Shown here piece by piece: positions 16,035 through 32,077 of a stretch of DNA of 37,922 bases. This stretch comes from an uncultured Gammaproteobacteria bacterium (GTDB taxonomy: Bacteria; Patescibacteriota; Patescibacteriia; UBA1558; S5-K13). Location: the NCBI GenBank assembly GCA_964636855.1, contig CAZWVD010000002.1, positions 1-37,922 on the forward strand, read 5' to 3'. Numbering within the stretch: position 1 is the stretch's first letter; every line of letters begins with the position of its first letter. The translations under genes were made by a program, and so were the position numbers. The notes beneath the pieces were generated by a model. The model did not search any database and was not told the origin of the DNA. It saw only the letters and a list, made by a program, of their open reading frames with translations.

Positions 16035-16434
16035 TATCTGGAATATTTAAAAATATCTGGGTTTGTTGCAGTGCCTCGCCGTTTTTACCAGTATGTTCAA
16101 GGTGTTGCGAATCTCTCCATCCAAACATATTTTTCATCATAAAGCACCATGCGGCGACTTGACCTTTTACTTGTCCAGTAGCTAGACCGTAACCTAGCTC
16201 TAGAAAATGAGCTTCTTGTGCTTTTCTAGCCTTTTTATAGGACTCAGAAAACTCAGGATGCTTTTCAGTCCAAGCAAGAAGCGTCTCAACGGTCACATCT
16301 ATTTGACAGGCAAATCGCTCAATGAATCCGCCTTCTTTACAGTGTCTAATGAGCATCTCTCCATACTCTTGCTTGTATTTAGAAGGTCGTCCACCAGGGT
16401 GTTTAGAGTTTAGTCCGCGTCTTGCTTTAGACAT
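16012..16434 (-). CDS. terS: Terminase small subunit
   Basis: N-terminus GGRPSKYKQEYGEMLIRHCKEGG...LAWTEKHPEFSESYKKAR is typical of HTH-type small terminases. Lies immediately upstream of TerL. Confidence 0.8.
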   Translation of the reverse strand: MSKARRGLNSKHPGGRPSKYKQEYGEMLIRHCKEGGFIERFACQIDVTVETLLAWTEKHPEFSESYKKARKAQEAHFLELGYGLATGQVKGQVAAWCFMMKNMFGWRDSQHLEHTGKNGEALQQTQIFLNIPDNGRSKKD

Positions 16435-17113
16435 TTACTTCACTTCTATATTGGAGCGCATCGGTCGGACTTTCACCGCCCCCTACTGACTGGCAGTCAG
16501 TCGTACTAGATTCTATACGTGATGCGCGTTTAGGATAAGAAAAAACACGATGCTTTAAAATATAATTTTGATCTAATATCTTTAGATACAAATGTTTTGT
16601 TTCTGATGGCGCGTGACGCCACCCTTCTGGGAACAATTTCTCGTTACCGTATTTTTGGCGAGCTGACCTTCCATGAACCTTTTTGCCATTGATAAAATAA
16701 TATGCCCCTTTATCTGATGTCTTTCTCTCGCCTAAATATAGCCATCCATTTGCCTGATAGATTCCTCCGTGATGTCCCTGGTTGGTTTTATCAGCATAGC
16801 TAAACACAAGTTTTATGCCAGGATTGCTTCTCTTTAAAAAGCCAATACTAATTTTCAAAATACGACTAACAGGCGTTTTATGATCTTTTAGACTAACACG
16901 AGTTAGTTCACATAACTCGGTTTGTTTTAAATTAAACATTTTAGCGGCATTATTATTGGCACCGTAAGAAAAGATAACAACGCCAGTAAACTTATTATTT
17001 TCCCAAACACCGACCTTAACCATCTTTCCAACAGGTAAACATTTAGAATAGTGCCAGTTCTTACAGGCATATTTAGCCGCTTCATGAGTTGCCCAATCAA
17101 TTTTTAGACTCAT
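16427..17113 (-). CDS. Mom-like (GNAT-fold) DNA-modification enzyme candidate
   Basis: WHYSKCLPVG...GVVIFSYGAN...ELCELTRVSL...LVFSYADKTNQGHHGGIYQANGWLYLG fits the HHYS...GV..FG...ELsRl...vSYAD...GH.G.iYqA.Nw.Y.G pattern I recall for Mom-family proteins. ATG 17113 (GAGAG upstream) preferred over 17158. Confidence 0.6.
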   Translation of the reverse strand: MSLKIDWATHEAAKYACKNWHYSKCLPVGKMVKVGVWENNKFTGVVIFSYGANNNAAKMFNLKQTELCELTRVSLKDHKTPVSRILKISIGFLKRSNPGIKLVFSYADKTNQGHHGGIYQANGWLYLGERKTSDKGAYYFINGKKVHGRSARQKYGNEKLFPEGWRHAPSETKHLYLKILDQNYILKHRVFSYPKRASRIESSTTDCQSVGGGESPTDALQYRSEVNV

Positions 17114-17318
17114 ACTCTCTCGCATTAAAATGATTTCCACACTCAGGACAATCAACAAATATTGGTGATTTTTGATCTAATTGTCCTTGGTCAGAAATGC
17201 TGCCAGACTCAAAGTTTAAATTTATTGACTTTGTTTCAAATGATTTTATGCCTAACATTGTTATCTCTACCGGCATAATCTCAATCTTTTTACTAATAGC
17301 ATCAACATCAAGCGCAGC
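17097..17318 (-). other. 73-codon open extension in frame behind the TGA of the ParB-like ORF; ends inside the Mom-like gene start
   Basis: Hand translation after TGA 17319-17321: AALDVDAISKKIEIMPVEITMLGIKSFETKSINLNFESGSISDQGQLDQKSPIFVDCPECGNHFNAREYESKN, stop at 17097-17099. There is an internal ATG at 17276. Confidence 0.4.
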
Positions 17319-23462: not shown

Positions 23463-23548
23463 CAAGTGAAAATATTAGCTTGACCATAAGCATTGTGGCA
23501 TTTTGTGTTGCCATAACAAATCTTGTATATGTTATTACTAGAAAGTGA
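23459..23548 (+). CDS. 29-aa hydrophobic mini-protein
   Basis: ATGA overlap with the RHH stop. MTSENISLTISIVAFCVAITNLVYVITRK has one TM-length segment. Its stop overlaps the next GTG start. Confidence 0.4.
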   Translation: MTSENISLTISIVAFCVAITNLVYVITRK

Positions 23549-23760
23549 GAAGCGACTACCAAAATGAAAACGATGAGTGGATCTGTGGGGAATGCCGTAC
23601 TGTTATCGACATCGACAAAGGCGGCACGTGTAAATGTTCTTTTGATAGTAACGACGGAGATGGAATTATTTTGAAGGACGATAGTCGTTCGGTTGCTGAT
23701 GCGTTCATTCATGAGCTTAGATTAGGGATTAGTAACTTTTCTAAGGGAAAAGGAATATGA
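23545..23760 (+). CDS. Cys-rich small protein (71 aa)
   Basis: Listed ORF (GTG start, GTGA overlap). CGEC...CKC. Its stop overlaps the MTase ATG (ATGA). Confidence 0.5.
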   Translation: MRSDYQNENDEWICGECRTVIDIDKGGTCKCSFDSNDGDGIILKDDSRSVADAFIHELRLGISNFSKGKGI

Positions 23761-25028
23761 TAAATGGCTTGGATTTATTTTCAGGCATCGGTGGAATCAC
23801 GCTCGCTCTATCAGAGTGGGTCAAGCCAATCACATACTGTGAAATCGACAGATATGCACAAGCCGTTTTGTTGTCCAGAATGCAAGACGGACTATTGTCA
23901 CGAGCTCCTATCTGGGATGACGTTACAACTCTCGATGGAAAGCAATTCAGAGGACAAATTGATATTATTTACGGCGGCTTCCCGTGCCAGGACATCAGCG
24001 TTGCAGGAAATGGAAAAGGCTTGGCAGGAAACCGAAGCTGGCTTTTTAAAGAGATCATGCGCCTGGCCGAAGAAATCAAGCCCAAGTTCATATTCCTTGA
24101 AAATGTCCCAGCAATTAGGACTAGAGGACTCGAGCACGTGGCCGAATGGCTTGCCTGTTCCGGCTATGATTGCAGATGGGACTTTGTATCCGCTCAAGAA
24201 GTTGGAGCTCCACACATTAGACAACGATGGTTTTGTCTTGCCAACGCCAACGGCAACGGAGGGAGGATACAACCAGGGCGGAGGAAAAGGGCGTGCGGGA
24301 AAGTTGCGACCAAGTCTATCAATGATGGCTCGCAAGAACCTTTGGCCGACTCCGACAATCGCAGGGAATTACAACAAACCAGGGGCCAGCGAAAAATCAG
24401 GGATGGGGTTGGCATCAGCGGTGAAGTTATGGCCAACGCCTCGAGCATCAGAGGCGGGGCGCGAACCATCAAGGGTAGTCGACTGCGGCAACAAGACGAC
24501 GTTATGCGAGAGGATTGGTGGGCAGTTGAACCCAACGTGGGTCGAGTGGTTAATGGGCTATCCCCTGAGTTGGACTTCTTTATCTTTGAAAGTGAGGAAA
24601 ACAATGTTTCCAGTATCGAAACAAACGATTCGCAAGCGATCGCAGAGACTAGTCTCTTTAACAGGGAAGTCTTGCGAAAAATGTGGGAGTTCAAAGAGAT
24701 TGCAGCGTCATCACCCGAGCTATACTTCCGAAAATTGCATGATTCTTTGCCAACCTTGCCACAAAGACCAACACATCTTGGAGAAAACCTGGGGCAGAGG
24801 ATTCAAAAAGGAAGCGAATTGCATAATCTGTGGGAAAAGTTTTATACCGCTTCAGAACAAGCAGAACAAACTATGTGGCAATCCAAATTGCTTAAAAGAG
24901 TCTGGGAGATTAGCTGCGAGGAAACGATGTCAAAATCAAACCGCATAGACCGAATTAAAGGACTGGGCAACGCAGTGGTTCCGGCCCAAACAAAAGAAGC
25001 GTTTAAGAGATTGATAAAGATTACATAG
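23757..25028 (+). CDS. DNA (cytosine-5)-methyltransferase (frame 0) with a 125-codon insertion before motif X
   Basis: Motif I DLFSGIGG, IV GGFPCQDISVAG (23973-24008), VI ENV (24099-24107), VIII IRQRWFCLA, then EPNVGRVVNGLS ... NRIDRIKGLGNAVVP (motif X, 24960-24983). Confidence 0.85.
   Translation: MINGLDLFSGIGGITLALSEWVKPITYCEIDRYAQAVLLSRMQDGLLSRAPIWDDVTTLDGKQFRGQIDIIYGGFPCQDISVAGNGKGLAGNRSWLFKEIMRLAEEIKPKFIFLENVPAIRTRGLEHVAEWLACSGYDCRWDFVSAQEVGAPHIRQRWFCLANANGNGGRIQPGRRKRACGKVATKSINDGSQEPLADSDNRRELQQTRGQRKIRDGVGISGEVMANASSIRGGARTIKGSRLRQQDDVMREDWWAVEPNVGRVVNGLSPELDFFIFESEENNVSSIETNDSQAIAETSLFNREVLRKMWEFKEIAASSPELYFRKLHDSLPTLPQRPTHLGENLGQRIQKGSELHNLWEKFYTASEQAEQTMWQSKLLKRVWEISCEETMSKSNRIDRIKGLGNAVVPAQTKEAFKRLIKIT
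23764..24948 (+). other. 394-codon stop-free ORF in the +1 frame of the MTase gene (WPTP repeats, EWLMGYP motif, HNH)
   Basis: Listed ORF. LPTPTATE (24238-24261), LWPTPT (24340-24357), LWPTPRASE (24427-24453), LNPTWVEWLMGYPLSWT (24526-24576), HNH (24664-24774). Confidence 0.5.
24604..24948 (+). CDS. Nested small HNH endonuclease (114 aa) in the +1 frame inside the MTase gene
   Basis: ATG 24604 lies 5 nt after GAGGA (24594-24598). SCEKCGSSKRLQRHHPSYTSENCMILCQPCHKDQH is a canonical HNH. Second knuckle CIICGKSF...CGNPNC (24820-24891). Confidence 0.65.
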   Translation: MFPVSKQTIRKRSQRLVSLTGKSCEKCGSSKRLQRHHPSYTSENCMILCQPCHKDQHILEKTWGRGFKKEANCIICGKSFIPLQNKQNKLCGNPNCLKESGRLAARKRCQNQTA

Positions 25029-25062
25029 ATATTGCAAAGAACCGAATTAACAACATTAAGGT

Positions 25063-25344
25063 CTAAAGAATGTCCCTATTTATAAATAAAGGAACGTGCT
25101 TTTTTTCCTTTTCTAGCCCGCTTTTAATTAATGACATAACCTTTAAAGATGACATCTGGTATTCGTTAACCCATAGTGAATACAAATTAAGCCCAGTTAA
25201 GTTATTCTTAATAAGCCACCGACAGGCATCCTCTGATCGCCTCATAGAGTTTATATACCATGCAAGCGGTGCTAGCTGAGTATATCCGTCACAGACACGA
25301 AGCAACAAATAGTGTAGGACCTCTGACTTTATTTTGTTTTTCAT
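25063..25344 (-). CDS. Hypothetical protein (93 aa), last gene of the tail/lysis operon
   Basis: Listed ORF, ATGA-coupled to the upstream lipoprotein gene. Confidence 0.6.
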   Translation of the reverse strand: MKNKIKSEVLHYLLLRVCDGYTQLAPLAWYINSMRRSEDACRWLIKNNLTGLNLYSLWVNEYQMSSLKVMSLIKSGLEKEKKHVPLFINRDIL

Positions 25345-26735
25345 AGCCTTGTCGGTTTATTTCCAATCTTCCATTGAATCCTTAAATGCTGTGCTCCGTC
25401 AATTGTTTCTATGCACTTTTTAGGTAAAAGCTCAGACTGCTCACAGATAGCCGCACCTTCGGCCCAGACTTCGGCTGGCTCTGGTTTATTCTCACGTCTT
25501 GCCCTGCTTAAATAAAATCCCTCTTTTTTTGCAAAATTATAAACGACGGCAACAAACGACCCGCCCTTAGACCTTGCACATAGCGGCGTCTTTTGACCAC
25601 GAACACCAAAGAAAGATTGAAGGCCTTTGTCGCTTCTTTCGATTGTTAAATTACATTTGATCGTATAGCGGCTTAGGTGCGCTAGAATTTGCTCCGAACC
25701 CAAATGACCATTGCTAGATAGAAAGTTTAATAGCAAGTCTTTATCGCGCAACGATAGGCCGAAATGCCTTGGATCAACATCGTGATTGAAATTTACTTTG
25801 CCTTGCGCGCTCAACGGATACCCAAGAGATTTTGCCGCAGCGCAAAGTCCACCATAAAAGCCAGGTGACTGATCAACACTAGTTTTAAAATTTAAATCTT
25901 TTTTTCCAAGTGCCATTGAATATAAAATTTCTTGAAGCCCAGACCCAGCTCTTGAGTTCACGTAGGCCCGGTTCATAGGTAACACCAATGCATAAGCACG
26001 CGAGTCATCCACTCCGTTTCCAATTATTGTTTCGCCAGTTGACTCATCCACTTGGTAGGCTTTAATAGAATTCATTGGAAGCTTATGGCCCATTAAAGTA
26101 ACGAGGTACCAATATGTCTTTAACCACTCATCGGCCTTGGAGCGAAGAAGTACGTGATTATGCTTATCAGCATGCCTGCGAACTGCTAAAACTACGCCAA
26201 GATTTAGGGCCTGATATGTACCAGAAAATATCTCGCGCCCTAGAAACCCTACTTCCCGATCCGTTAGTTGTACGTCGAAGTAACCTTCAAGCCACCTTGG
26301 ATCTTTTTCAACAATATATTTAACGGCTCTGCAAGTCAGCGGTATGTTTTCAGACCCTCCGCGAAACATATCTCGTGGTAAGATTGGCCCTGCATGTTGG
26401 TTCACTTTAAACATATCTACTGGCTTACCAGCTAAAGCCTTCCCAAGGGATGCAAAACAAAAGCAATTTCCCTCAGAACACTTTTTATATGGTTCATTAC
26501 CAGACGTGCAATAGCCTGCGTTTTTTGGATAACTCGGATAAATGATTGGTTTAACAGGCGGCTCTTGCGTGAGTGTCGTGGTCGTAGTGGTTGAGACAAG
26601 AGTAGTTGTGGTAGTTGTACTAACCGGCGGCTTGCCAGGGCTTTTACAGCCAAACATTAAGTGGGCCAGCAAGAGCGTCAAAAATACACCAAGGAGAGCC
26701 CGCAACACGTACTTATCGTTTTTGTTTAATTTCAT
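25341..26735 (-). CDS. Large lipoprotein of unknown function with Thr-rich linker (464 aa)
   Basis: Signal/lipobox LLAHLMFGC, then PPVSTTTTTTLVSTTTTTTLTQEPP. The Cys-rich globular body has no motif I recognise. Confidence 0.75.
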   Translation of the reverse strand: MKLNKNDKYVLRALLGVFLTLLLAHLMFGCKSPGKPPVSTTTTTTLVSTTTTTTLTQEPPVKPIIYPSYPKNAGYCTSGNEPYKKCSEGNCFCFASLGKALAGKPVDMFKVNQHAGPILPRDMFRGGSENIPLTCRAVKYIVEKDPRWLEGYFDVQLTDREVGFLGREIFSGTYQALNLGVVLAVRRHADKHNHVLLRSKADEWLKTYWYLVTLMGHKLPMNSIKAYQVDESTGETIIGNGVDDSRAYALVLPMNRAYVNSRAGSGLQEILYSMALGKKDLNFKTSVDQSPGFYGGLCAAAKSLGYPLSAQGKVNFNHDVDPRHFGLSLRDKDLLLNFLSSNGHLGSEQILAHLSRYTIKCNLTIERSDKGLQSFFGVRGQKTPLCARSKGGSFVAVVYNFAKKEGFYLSRARRENKPEPAEVWAEGAAICEQSELLPKKCIETIDGAQHLRIQWKIGNKPTRL

Positions 26736-30635: not shown

Positions 30636-31066
30636 TACGCCCCCAAAGAAGAGTATCTCCAGTTCATTTTTGAATTAGCTGTGTCATAAGAACCGGACAT
30701 ATTATCAGTAGTATACTTCACTTGTCCGCTAGATGCGTCAATTGTGAAATCAATATTTGCGTTATCAACGTACCATACACGTTGAATTTGCCATGACGTT
30801 CCATTGTACCAAGCAACAAGCTTTCCTACTTCAAACACAGTGGATGTTGCAATCCTCTTAACGTAGTACTCTATAAATGCTACTTTTATAGATGTGTTAT
30901 CTAATAGCAAACTTGCCACATTCGCAGCTGACTGATTATTAGCGATTGCAGATAATGTGTGACCTTCAAATACATCTATTCCGGCTTGTCTAAGAGAGTT
31001 CCACCAACTTGCATCAACTCCGTCAGTCGCTGCGTTTGTTCTTATTGGTATATCAGAAAAGTTCAT
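30635..31066 (-). CDS. Hypothetical tail-tip protein (143 aa)
   Basis: Listed ORF, abutting both neighbours in the tail operon. Confidence 0.7.
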   Translation of the reverse strand: MNFSDIPIRTNAATDGVDASWWNSLRQAGIDVFEGHTLSAIANNQSAANVASLLLDNTSIKVAFIEYYVKRIATSTVFEVGKLVAWYNGTSWQIQRVWYVDNANIDFTIDASSGQVKYTTDNMSGSYDTANSKMNWRYSSLGA

Positions 31067-32077
31067 TTATACCTCTTCATAAAATATTTTAACAAATCCA
31101 GCACCGCCAGCACCGCCAGCAAAGCTAGCTCCTCCGCCACCGCCACCCGCGCCACCCGCACCGCCACCGCCACCTGCTCCGCTAGAGCCAGCCGATCCAG
31201 CATTGCCAGCTGTTCCGCCAGCACCGCCGCTTCCAAACGACCCGCCGCCACCGCCACCTGCTCTGCCGCCAGAAACTGCCGCCGCGCCAAGACCTCCAAT
31301 TAGTGAATCAAATCCGCCCTCTGCATTTGCTGTTCCACCATCTCCACCGTCGCCGCCTGGGATAGCTGAGTTTTCCCAATTAAAGCTAGCCCCGCCTCCG
31401 CCCCCAGCCCCATGCGCGGCCCCACTTGCTCCCTCTCCGCCGCTTCCGCCTGGGCCACCGGGAAACCTTAAAATTACTGTACTTCCGTTTTTAATATATG
31501 AAGGGTTTCCGTTTGCGCCGGGGTTTCCATTCGTTGATTGGCTAGCAGGTGCTCCGCCAGCGCCACCGCCACCTATCTCGACTACATAACAAGTCTCTAC
31601 GCTGTGTACCCCTGATCCCTGTGATGAAATATTTATGTCTGCGCCACCAGGAGTAGAGGATATTTTGAAAGTATCAGTTGTAACTGTTTTTAAATAATAA
31701 ACGGTAGCCGCGCTGATATTACCTGGCAATGTATCGGTAGAAGAAAATACAACGGATTGATTTTCTGATAATCCGTGACCAGTTATGGTTATCACCTCTG
31801 TTGATGTATTAACGTCAGCTGGCGCAAAAGATCTGTATTTTGAAGCGTCTAGCCTTACTGGATATGATCTTGGGTCTGCGCCACCTCCACCGCCTCCACC
31901 GCCTCCGTTAAATGTTGGTCCGCTATCGCTTCCGCCACCCGACGCACCGCCCCCGCCGCCTCCAGCCCCATGCACTAATATGTTTCTAGATATTCCTGAC
32001 CTAACAATAAAATAGCCGCTAGATGTAAATTCCTGAACCTTATATTTTAATAGATTTAATATATGATTTTCTGTCAT
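31067..32077 (-). CDS. Glycine-rich domain protein (336 aa)
   Basis: Repeated GGGGGG/GAGG runs separated by short beta-like segments (VHGAGGGGGGASGGG..., VEIGGGGAGGAP..., GGPGGSGGEGASG...). Resembles glycine-rich domain proteins of phage tail modules. Confidence 0.7.
   Translation of the reverse strand: MTENHILNLLKYKVQEFTSSGYFIVRSGISRNILVHGAGGGGGGASGGGSDSGPTFNGGGGGGGGGADPRSYPVRLDASKYRSFAPADVNTSTEVITITGHGLSENQSVVFSSTDTLPGNISAATVYYLKTVTTDTFKISSTPGGADINISSQGSGVHSVETCYVVEIGGGGAGGAPASQSTNGNPGANGNPSYIKNGSTVILRFPGGPGGSGGEGASGAAHGAGGGGGASFNWENSAIPGGDGGDGGTANAEGGFDSLIGGLGAAAVSGGRAGGGGGGSFGSGGAGGTAGNAGSAGSSGAGGGGGAGGAGGGGGGASFAGGAGGAGFVKIFYEEV

Follow-up and report, generated by a model that had tools for sequence, protein, structure and literature searches.

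The DNA analysed here (the window, 37,922 nucleotides (nt)) harbors the gene of a C5 cytosine methyltransferase (methylase) in which a complete gene for a predicted HNH-type nuclease is nested in another reading frame. The window contig is phage-like and encodes a large terminase subunit, a portal protein, a tape measure protein, an Erf-like recombinase and a Mom-like protein. Over the methylase gene two frames of the same strand are open and the third is stop-rich. The first open frame (frame A) encodes the recognisable methylase chain, here called alpha. The second, shifted by +1 (frame B), encodes a chain called beta and runs on into the nuclease. In frame A the nuclease gene and its leader appear as an insertion of 125 codons. 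The features of the locus are listed in Table 1.

Table 1. Features of the two-frame methylase locus and of the open reading frame (ORF) upstream of it; positions refer to the window. AF2, AlphaFold2.
Feature	Coordinates	Strand	Basis
Upstream ORF, 71 amino acids (aa)	23545..23760	+	sequence reading; TGA 23758-23760 overlaps alpha ATG (ATGA)
Alpha ORF, C5 cytosine methyltransferase chain, 423 aa: motifs I-VIII, long spacer, motif X	23757..25028	+	Pfam, PHROG, AF2
Alpha catalytic core: motifs I (DLFSGIGG), IV (GGFPCQD), VI (ENV), VIII (HIRQRWF)	23757..24233	+	frame A selection
Beta ORF, frame +1, 394 aa including HNH tail	23764..24948	+	open frame, stop depletion, phrog_1008
Functional part of beta: PTP repeats and motif IX-like element	24235..24579	+	third-position variation in frame B
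125-codon insertion in alpha: -1 frame translation of HNH gene and leader	24564..24938	+	absent from P0002, P0003, L002
Left target copy CCTGAGTTGGACTTC	24564..24578	+	junction alignment of window, L001, L085 and L087 versus L002
GAGGA ribosome-binding site, 5 nt 5' of HNH ATG	24594..24598	+	sequence reading
HNH-type nuclease gene, 114 aa, predicted; in frame with beta	24604..24948	+	family alignment, phrog_2340
Right target copy (NRIDR), then alpha motif X and C-terminal helix	24939..25025	+	third-position variation, AF2

The alpha chain is a C5 methylase by its profile matches. It matches Pfam DNA_methylase (PF00145; E = 8.5e-40, 137.6 bits against a cut-off of 22) over residues 3-216 and phrog_363 (E = 1.8e-61), and with 96.1 bits it stays slightly below the cut-off of TIGR00675 (100.65). 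Motif X (GLGNAVVP, 24960-24983) lies in frame A on the 3' side of the insertion. The target recognition domain (TRD) and motif IX, which belong between motifs VIII and X, are not found in the alpha chain, where the corresponding stretch of frame A is unconserved. The AF2 model reflects this composition. Residues 1-165 are confident (predicted local distance difference test (pLDDT) > 90), residues 168-288 are modelled as disordered (pLDDT < 50), and the C-terminal helix with motif X (residues 401-423) again reaches 74-96. Over the insert confidence is mostly low; helices of middling confidence occur at 290-330, and residues 337-400 are low as well. Foldseek aligned the alpha core with M.HhaI and M.HaeIII (E ~5e-13) over ~169 columns, i.e. 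over the catalytic half only, and alpha alone is therefore without the small domain. At least 6723 alpha-type proteins are present in the databases. Among them, P0004 (607 aa) consists of two C5 methylase units fused in tandem, and P0076 (681 aa) is a methylase for which PDDEXK_1 nuclease and PF10926 domains are given as well.

In frame A the gene reads ...EPNVGRVVNGLS up to position 24563, continues with 125 stop-free codons (375 nt) and resumes with NRIDRIKGLGNAVVP from 24939. The original prediction, made from the window sequence, held that the two flanking elements are almost adjacent in related enzymes and that the segment between them is an insertion. The alignment with uninterrupted homologues bears this out: P0002 (268 aa, 88% identity) reads NGLPFRVDRIKGLGN and P0003 (260 aa, 89% identity) reads NGLSFRVDRIKALGN, with NGLS-FRVDRIK running through without a break. 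Since these closest homologues are without 24564-24938, the segment is an insertion. Its boundary is exact to within a ~12-nt imperfect duplication of the target. The left copy is a diverged version of TTCAGAGTGGACAGA, the empty allele in L002 (the contig encoding P0003), and keeps the ...LSWTS ending of beta; the alpha reading at this place is PELDF. A leader of ~25 nt containing the GAGGA separates the left copy from the HNH gene, and the junction between beta and HNH reads ...LSWTSLSLKVRKTM.... On the right side AAC CGC ATA GAC CGA restores the xRIDR of alpha. The stop codon of the HNH gene (TAG, 24946-24948) is located within the ATA-GAC of alpha; the empty allele has GTG GAC at these codons, so that its beta frame carries TGG, coding for the Trp of the GWT motif, in place of this TAG. 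The insert-free allele of L002 reads GGTTATCCTTCAGAGTGGACAGAATTAAAG. The same junctions are found in the window and in the loci L001, L085 and L087.

The start, ribosome-binding site and length of the HNH gene, and its stop at the very place where the motif X segment resumes, had all been located correctly in the original prediction. Its account of the +1 frame as a separate ORF beginning at 24604 needs to be amended: the start codon stands, but the frame is already open from 23764, and the HNH protein forms the tail of a 394-codon ORF. An ATG equivalent to that at 24604 is present in L001, L085 and L087 and corresponds to the first residue of the family alignment. The product carries the pattern CEKCG..RHH..N..CQPCH..H followed by a second Cys4 knuckle (CIICG...CGNPNC); the beta-beta-alpha-metal signature is thus present as CEKC...RHH...SEN...CQPCH...DQH. 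Invariant columns in the family alignment of 25 sequences are C24, C27, H36, H37, C49, H53, C73, C76, C91 and C96. With PHROG profiles the window protein matches phrog_2340 ('endonuclease', 1.7e-5) and phrog_4234 ('HNH endonuclease', 8.7e-4); no NCBIfam match was obtained. PF01844 is matched by 4 of 25 relatives and HNH_3 by 2 of 25, and the names that relatives bear in the source databases include 'HNH endonuclease signature motif containing protein' and 'McrA'. Free-standing proteins of 105-160 aa align with the HNH product over its full length, and 400 representatives reach E <= 1e-3. A comparison of the HNH profile with the PDB gave nothing useful (no hits or zinc-finger noise), a search of IMG/VR with the single window sequence returned no confirmed relatives, and the HNH alignment offers no block conserved enough for an IMG/VR search. 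A contig scan with P0395 yielded one small contig only.

The beta chain begins 7 nt 3' of the alpha ATG, and both start codons lie behind the same purine-rich stretch (AAGGA, 23750-23754). Direct inspection shows that the beta ATG is conserved. From 24235 onwards frame B reads LPTPTA...WPTPT...WPTPRASE...LNPTWVEWLMGYPLSWTS and passes into the HNH gene without a stop. The three PTP repeats (LPTPTA, WPTPT and WPTPRA) are followed by the motif IX-like element LNPTWVEWLMGYPLSWT at 24526-24576, recognised by its likeness to the consensus alone; the canonical consensus is RxLxPxExxRxMGFP, as in M.HhaI. Beta matches phrog_1008 (E = 4e-21), a PHROGs family separate from that of alpha. The databases contain 2116 beta-type homologues; P0005 is 60% identical, with 100% of the length covered. 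A Pfam domain is absent from all of the 120 best listed, and names, if the source gives any, are 'hypothetical protein' or 'DNA methyltransferase'. A side observation concerns the central PTP-repeat region: positions 24355-24516 have no DNA similarity to L002, the flanks being 87% (23760-24354) and 98% (24517-24563) identical. From these sequences it looks as if the specificity module within the beta frame had been swapped.

Two open frames are by no means a peculiarity of the window. They are also present in L001, which belongs to a different phage and has the HNH insert, in L002, which is without it, and in Acinetobacter phage ABMM1, Salmonella phage S9-5 (P22-like) and an environmental Caudoviricetes genome. 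Across 80 IMG/VR loci (35-67% identical to the query) the longest +1 stop-free run spans nearly the whole methylase ORF, with a median of 2 stops in frame +1 versus 15 in frame +2. In total the layout is kept in > 90 independent assemblies, complete genomes of cultured phages included. For Paenibacillus phage Tadhana the annotators called both coding sequences (CDSs), TADHANA_54 and the nested +1 TADHANA_55. At this locus (L004 1050-2120; MG727700) and in many related P. larvae phages the overlapping CDSs are both named DNA-cytosine methyltransferase; a search of the comparative-genomics paper PMC6070908 turned up no discussion of the overlap.

The frame that is under selection changes along the gene. 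Substitutions were counted per codon position, where A1 is the third position of frame B and A3 the third position of frame A, between the window and single loci as well as family-wide (1365 pairs from 66 loci). Over motifs I-VIII variation is highest at the third position of frame A, both against L001 (A1/A2/A3 0.24/0.15/0.37) and family-wide (0.30/0.21/0.53). Over the variable region and motif IX the peak moves to the third position of frame B (0.47/0.22/0.29 against L001; 0.41/0.33/0.335 family-wide), and in the HNH insert it is likewise the third position of the HNH (B) frame that varies most (0.29/0.13/0.15 against L001). In the motif X tail it is back in frame A (0.24/0.14/0.36 against L001; 0.30/0.25/0.545 family-wide). 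The comparison with L002 shows the same pattern in motifs I-VIII (frame A third position 0.22 vs 0.09/0.04) and in the variable region and motif IX. The shift of the peak from A3 to A1 and again to A3 means that purifying selection goes from frame A to frame B and back to frame A, and the insert is located where selection returns from B to A. Some apparent motifs are consequences of the overlap: the LA[DN][ST] of frame A, as read from the codons, is the forced -1 reading of the beta WPTP, its EPxVGRVxNG that of the beta NPxWVEWLMG, and the S[RP]A[RK]TS and SLKM/SWKT of beta are shadows of the FPCQDIS and ENV of alpha.

The passenger frames are kept free of stops to an extent that codon usage does not explain. 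When each constrained protein was synonymously resampled with the phage's own codon usage, 12 stops were expected in frame B over motifs I-VIII and 0 occur after the ATG (P < 5e-5); 8.6 were expected in frame A over the variable region and 0 were observed (P < 5e-5); and over the HNH coding sequence frame A has 0 stops against a mean expectation of 7.5 (P = 1e-4). The insertion site is the sole place where neither chain needs the sequence. Because both frames constrain the target, it is among the most conserved DNA of the gene: the 15 nt around EWLMG have a mean of 1.64 bits per nt, and at least 1 bit per nt is kept for ~60 nt across the insertion site.

A methylase divided between two overlapping frames has a characterised precedent. 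In M.EcoHK31I the beta polypeptide is encoded wholly within the alpha gene in another frame (PMC2836561, citing Lee, Kam & Shaw 1995). According to PMC2836561, its alpha polypeptide (309 aa) carries motifs I-VIII as well as X and is assigned the TRD, its beta polypeptide (176 aa) carries motif IX and has a partly dispensable N-terminus, and both chains are required. Compared with this published description, the window shows the same type of second ORF (other frame, same strand), an apparently matching motif layout (with motif IX of beta a putative one) and similar sizes, uninterrupted family members having an alpha of 260-300 aa and a beta of ~250 aa. It differs in that the beta of the window clade starts directly behind the alpha start and spans the whole gene, and in that M.EcoHK31I is without an embedded nuclease gene. 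By analogy, the host gene of the window would be an M.EcoHK31I-type two-frame C5 methyltransferase, with motifs I-VIII and X on alpha and the PTP region and motif IX on beta. Another two-subunit C5 methyltransferase is M.AquI, in which alpha carries motifs I-VIII and beta motifs IX-X. It too is a methylase split over overlapping ORFs, and its layout is the one met in some of the HNH-bearing loci described below (L092, L093, L095-L097 and L100); in the window, by contrast, motif X stays on alpha, and an insertion of a gene between motifs IX and X is not known from M.AquI.

The original prediction did not touch on the recurrence of the arrangement, which is site-specific and no one-off, as the HNH family recurs at the same site in many unrelated methylase genes. 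In each of the 15 other loci examined, a C5 methylase gene holds it at its GWT/RVDR site (L001, L085, L087, L089, L092-L097, L100 and L104-L106, together with L086, a second copy of the L085 contig); L092 is a Chromobacterium contig whose neighbour genes point to a prophage context. The methylases in question span three methylase clades. The occurrence is sporadic. The insert is absent from the closest methylase relatives of the window (P0002, P0003 and L002, 87-89% identity), yet L001 has it at 81% DNA identity although the methylase cores are only ~75% identical, and presence or absence does not track methylase phylogeny. None of the 80 sampled methylase loci carries it. The methylase module is the only part common to these otherwise unrelated phages.

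At every locus except L087 motif X is reached through the HNH gene's -1 frame, which is open up to motif X in 14 of the 15 other loci, L087 again being the exception. Two arrangements achieve this. In the window, L001, L085 and L104-L106 the HNH gene shares the frame of the upstream beta and alpha reads to motif X, as in M.EcoHK31I. No stop separates beta from HNH in the window, L001, L085, L087, L105 and L106; L104 has a stop codon there. In L092, L093, L095-L097 and L100 the HNH gene (locus positions ~1801-2157 or 1501-1854) is shifted by 1 nt relative to the upstream beta. In these loci the insert is not a multiple of three, so that motif X falls into the upstream beta frame; beta reads to motif X, and alpha terminates shortly after the junction, as in M.AquI. 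L095 has a stop in the alpha spacer. The openness of the -1 frame was tested by within-gene synonymous codon permutation (P for permuted stops <= observed) at the window and seven other loci, the others giving P from < 5e-5 to 0.013, and stops are significantly depleted in all eight. Among the values are 1.5e-4 for the window, 2.5e-4 for L001, < 5e-5 for L085, 0.013 for L092, 0.005 for L093, 0.007 for L094 and 0.004 for L095. What the original prediction had noticed, a host frame open over all 125 codons, is thus significant under permutation as well as under resampling.

The exceptional locus L087 (1490-2700, on the contig encoding P0124) is decayed: alpha is interrupted by two stops within motif IV and by a third in the passenger stretch over the HNH gene, and the N-terminus of alpha is now fused to the beta-HNH frame. 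This exception fits a read-through model: where alpha was already broken, a stop appeared in the HNH passenger. Three further loci deserve mention in their own right. L088 1270-2600 (P0149) has a longer insert at the same site that encodes a larger nuclease with extra Cys clusters, and L089 1-1400 (P0212) has a high-GC insert there. Both inserts are flanked by clearer EPxVGRVxxGxP duplications, in which conservation serves beta on the left and alpha on the right. L106 (JBDRKD010000066.1, 2.2 kb), labelled as a Candidatus Micrarchaeota metagenome-assembled genome (MAG), has the same arrangement as the phage locus L105; it is probably of viral origin and was binned with archaeal DNA.

The explanation we favor, and consider likely, is a two-frame phage methylase into which an HNH gene, most likely of the homing type, was inserted at the frame-switch point and is read through. 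A small HNH gene of the free-standing type, equipped with its own ribosome-binding site and ATG, would have entered after the ...GWT of beta and before the RVDRIK-LGNAVVP of alpha. The short target duplication would have come with the insertion, its left copy saving the end of beta and its right copy the start of the C-terminal element of alpha. Ribosomes translating alpha would cross the HNH gene in the -1 frame, add 125 residues to an unconstrained spacer and reach motif X, and selection would keep the alpha frame stop-free across HNH. Ribosomes translating beta would continue into the HNH gene; as no stop lies between the two in the window, translation of beta must give a beta-HNH fusion. 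Translation from ATG 24604 probably yields the HNH protein on its own as well. As in M.EcoHK31I, by analogy, the alpha and beta chains would assemble into the active enzyme.

In the window the HNH gene has its own translation signals and belongs to neither an intron nor an intein; its family occurs sporadically, at one site, beside intact empty alleles. Judged from these sequence features, it most likely encodes a site-specific mobile (homing-type) endonuclease that targets the conserved motif IX/X junction. A wider proposition can be put forward only tentatively, and we rate its chances at somewhat below even: that this HNH family lives only in two-frame phage C5 methylase genes and persists by read-through of the host in the -1 frame, that the insert length modulo 3 toggles between the EcoHK31I and AquI layouts, and that the fusion in the window could direct cutting to unmethylated sites.

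Among the roles of the nuclease, homing is ranked first and a restriction-like or Vsr-like function second. In the latter case the HNH protein would be a working partner of the methylase: beta-HNH, with the nuclease tethered to the DNA-recognition subunit, would cut or nick at or near unmethylated methylase sites, in host or rival phage DNA, and so form a restriction-modification-like module in a single gene, or it would perform a Vsr-like nicking of the T:G mismatches left by 5-methylcytosine deamination. We consider this unlikely. A parallel does exist, as the gene of the Vsr endonuclease overlaps the 3' end of dcm out of frame, and a partnership would suit the restriction of the family to C5 methylase genes in all 15 other loci, its long-term co-divergence with them over three clades and the fact that methylase and HNH are both held intact by selection. 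Yet the HNH gene is missing from the 80 sampled loci and from the closest relatives, and since most methylases do without it, it is dispensable; its presence and absence also depart from the methylase phylogeny. The passage from beta to HNH is uninterrupted in six loci, but in six others HNH is off the beta frame (L092, L093, L095, L096, L097 and L100) and in L104 a stop intervenes, which means that fusion to beta is not a conserved feature. Far less probable is a single chain produced by two programmed frameshifts, from A to B after motif VIII and from B to A before motif X, with the HNH stretch translated or bypassed. Such a chain would present the elements in canonical order (I-VIII from A, variable region and IX from B, X from A), and natural in-frame A-B fusions such as P0073 do occur in the databases. 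However, no conserved slippery sequence was found at the junction of motif VIII and the variable region in 27 loci, which makes two polypeptides the better reading, and no Rfam frameshift or other RNA element is present. Nor does frameshifting need a frame B that is open for ~150 codons 5' of the junction, a frame A open for 100-230 codons across it, or a conserved ATG in beta. The characterised precedent, M.EcoHK31I, consists of two polypeptides.

Group I introns and inteins often harbor HNH genes, and removal of the insertion as an intron, an intein or by translational bypass, with an incidentally open frame, had to be considered too; we regard it as highly improbable. An intein is rejected, as the original prediction had already argued, because the nuclease lies in frame +1 relative to the interrupted chain. 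Group I and group II introns are rejected on two grounds, the maintenance of the open host frame and an Rfam covariance scan of 23500-25300, which at a permissive threshold (E <= 1) detected no intron or other RNA family on either strand; the original prediction, which saw no typical intron-borne homing gene here, was right in this too. Splicing or bypass would make the depletion of stops across the insert, as seen in the permutation-tested loci, unnecessary, and in L087, where alpha has decayed, a stop is found in the insert. The spacer between motifs VIII and X of alpha is passenger translation already, and the insertion merely lengthens it; the 125 extra residues in this spacer explain the open frame, and no splicing is needed. 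Of the two possibilities that the original prediction left open, read-through of a tolerated loop is hence retained, and an unrecognised splicing or bypass mechanism is suggested by nothing. Least credible of all is an artefact of assembly indels or codon composition, in which no beta protein would exist. Gene callers mostly report one of the two frames, the first 150 residues of beta show only 'shadow' conservation from alpha, and AF2 confidence for beta is low. Against this, independent assemblies repeat the two open frames, wobble-type variation tracks frame B in the variable and motif IX region, and the probability of zero stops under synonymous resampling is < 5e-5. Frame +1 was checked and is not interrupted in most family members, nor does third-position variation follow frame A throughout.

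Several observations weigh against the homing-type two-frame explanation itself. The variable PTP-repeat region of the window is selected in beta, unlike the TRD of M.EcoHK31I, which is placed in alpha. Pfam DNA_methylase aligns the C-terminal region in neither frame; an artificial A-B-A chimera was aligned over residues 3-161 alone, a chimera of motifs IX and X gave nothing useful, and a beta profile found no match in the PDB. For beta-HNH, AF2 gave a poor model (mean pLDDT 57), for which Foldseek returned no fold matches, the model being too poor to inform; in its alignment full-length beta chains stand beside short HNH proteins, and it is probably partly misaligned. The nuclease was called a 'canonical' HNH in the original prediction, and the signature and second knuckle are indeed there, but PF01844 scores the window protein at 14.0 bits against a cut-off of 21.4 (E = 0.059). 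We infer the translation of beta and of its long N-terminal passenger solely from stop depletion and ORF conservation, and homing from the distribution of the family alone. A fixed partnership between HNH and methylase would explain the strict co-location equally well, and a target-site duplication is an unusual signature for homing.

Other nuclease genes within or across genes offer partial parallels. Free-standing homing genes split phage genes, as mobE does in nrdA of Aeromonas phage Aeh1, and further examples are the seg and mob genes of T4. Like these, the HNH gene is short, brings its own start and lies within a conserved phage gene, without intron or intein, sporadic among relatives and compatible with the function of the host gene. 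Those host genes, however, are cut into two translated pieces, whereas in the window the host frame continues in -1 through the nuclease. We know of no described case in which a host frame is kept open through a nuclease gene in its -1 frame. The dcm-vsr pair of E. coli is similar in that the end of a C5 methyltransferase gene (its 3' part) is overlapped by an endonuclease gene, on the same strand and in a different frame. The overlap comprises only a few codons, and Vsr, which is not of the HNH type and not known to be mobile, has a defined role in mismatch repair; in the window the entire nuclease gene lies inside the methylase ORF. With the HNH superfamily (PF01844 / PF13392) the window protein shares the pattern CxxC...HH...N...CxxCH...H, and it differs by its extra C-terminal Cys4 knuckle and by scoring below the Pfam gathering threshold. 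In the literature on overlapping or overprinted phage methylase genes and on HNH genes in methylases we found nothing relevant beyond M.EcoHK31I.

Immediately upstream, the TGA of the 71-aa ORF overlaps the alpha ATG and lies 4 nt before the beta ATG. This position suggests that alpha and beta could both be translationally coupled to the upstream ORF, which itself shows a zinc-ribbon-like CxxC...CxC pattern. Elsewhere in the window, a Mom-like DNA modification protein is encoded at 16427-17158 on the minus strand (phrog_1384, E = 4.7e-49), so that the phage has a second DNA-modification function beside the C5 methylase. Downstream of the locus, also on the minus strand, a predicted lipoprotein-like ORF of 464 aa (25341-26735) has a signal peptide ending in LMFGC followed by two poly-threonine runs (TTTTTTLVSTTTTTTL); no match to it was found among the PHROG families. 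A peak in G+C content (0.535 versus ~0.42 elsewhere, GC skew -0.26) at 31001-32000 falls within the structural gene block.

At this locus ~1.2 kb of DNA are read in two frames, and over 345 nt one frame is a nuclease and the other a methylase linker selected to stay open. The M.EcoHK31I-type architecture as such is known. The overlapping alpha/beta arrangement, described for one enzyme in 1995, nevertheless seems far commoner in phages than annotation reflects, and with thousands of database entries it appears to be common among phage C5 methylases. Apparently new is a whole nuclease gene at the frame-switch point that is obligatorily translated through in the -1 frame, and this in many lineages. 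For annotation, two full-length ORFs should be expected at such loci, and long 'insertions' in methylases should be checked for genes in the other frame. The HNH gene possibly represents a new way for a mobile nuclease gene to reside within an essential coding sequence, without intron, intein or gene splitting; if true, a homing gene and its host would coexist in a manner that differs from introns, inteins, insertion between genes and the splitting of genes.

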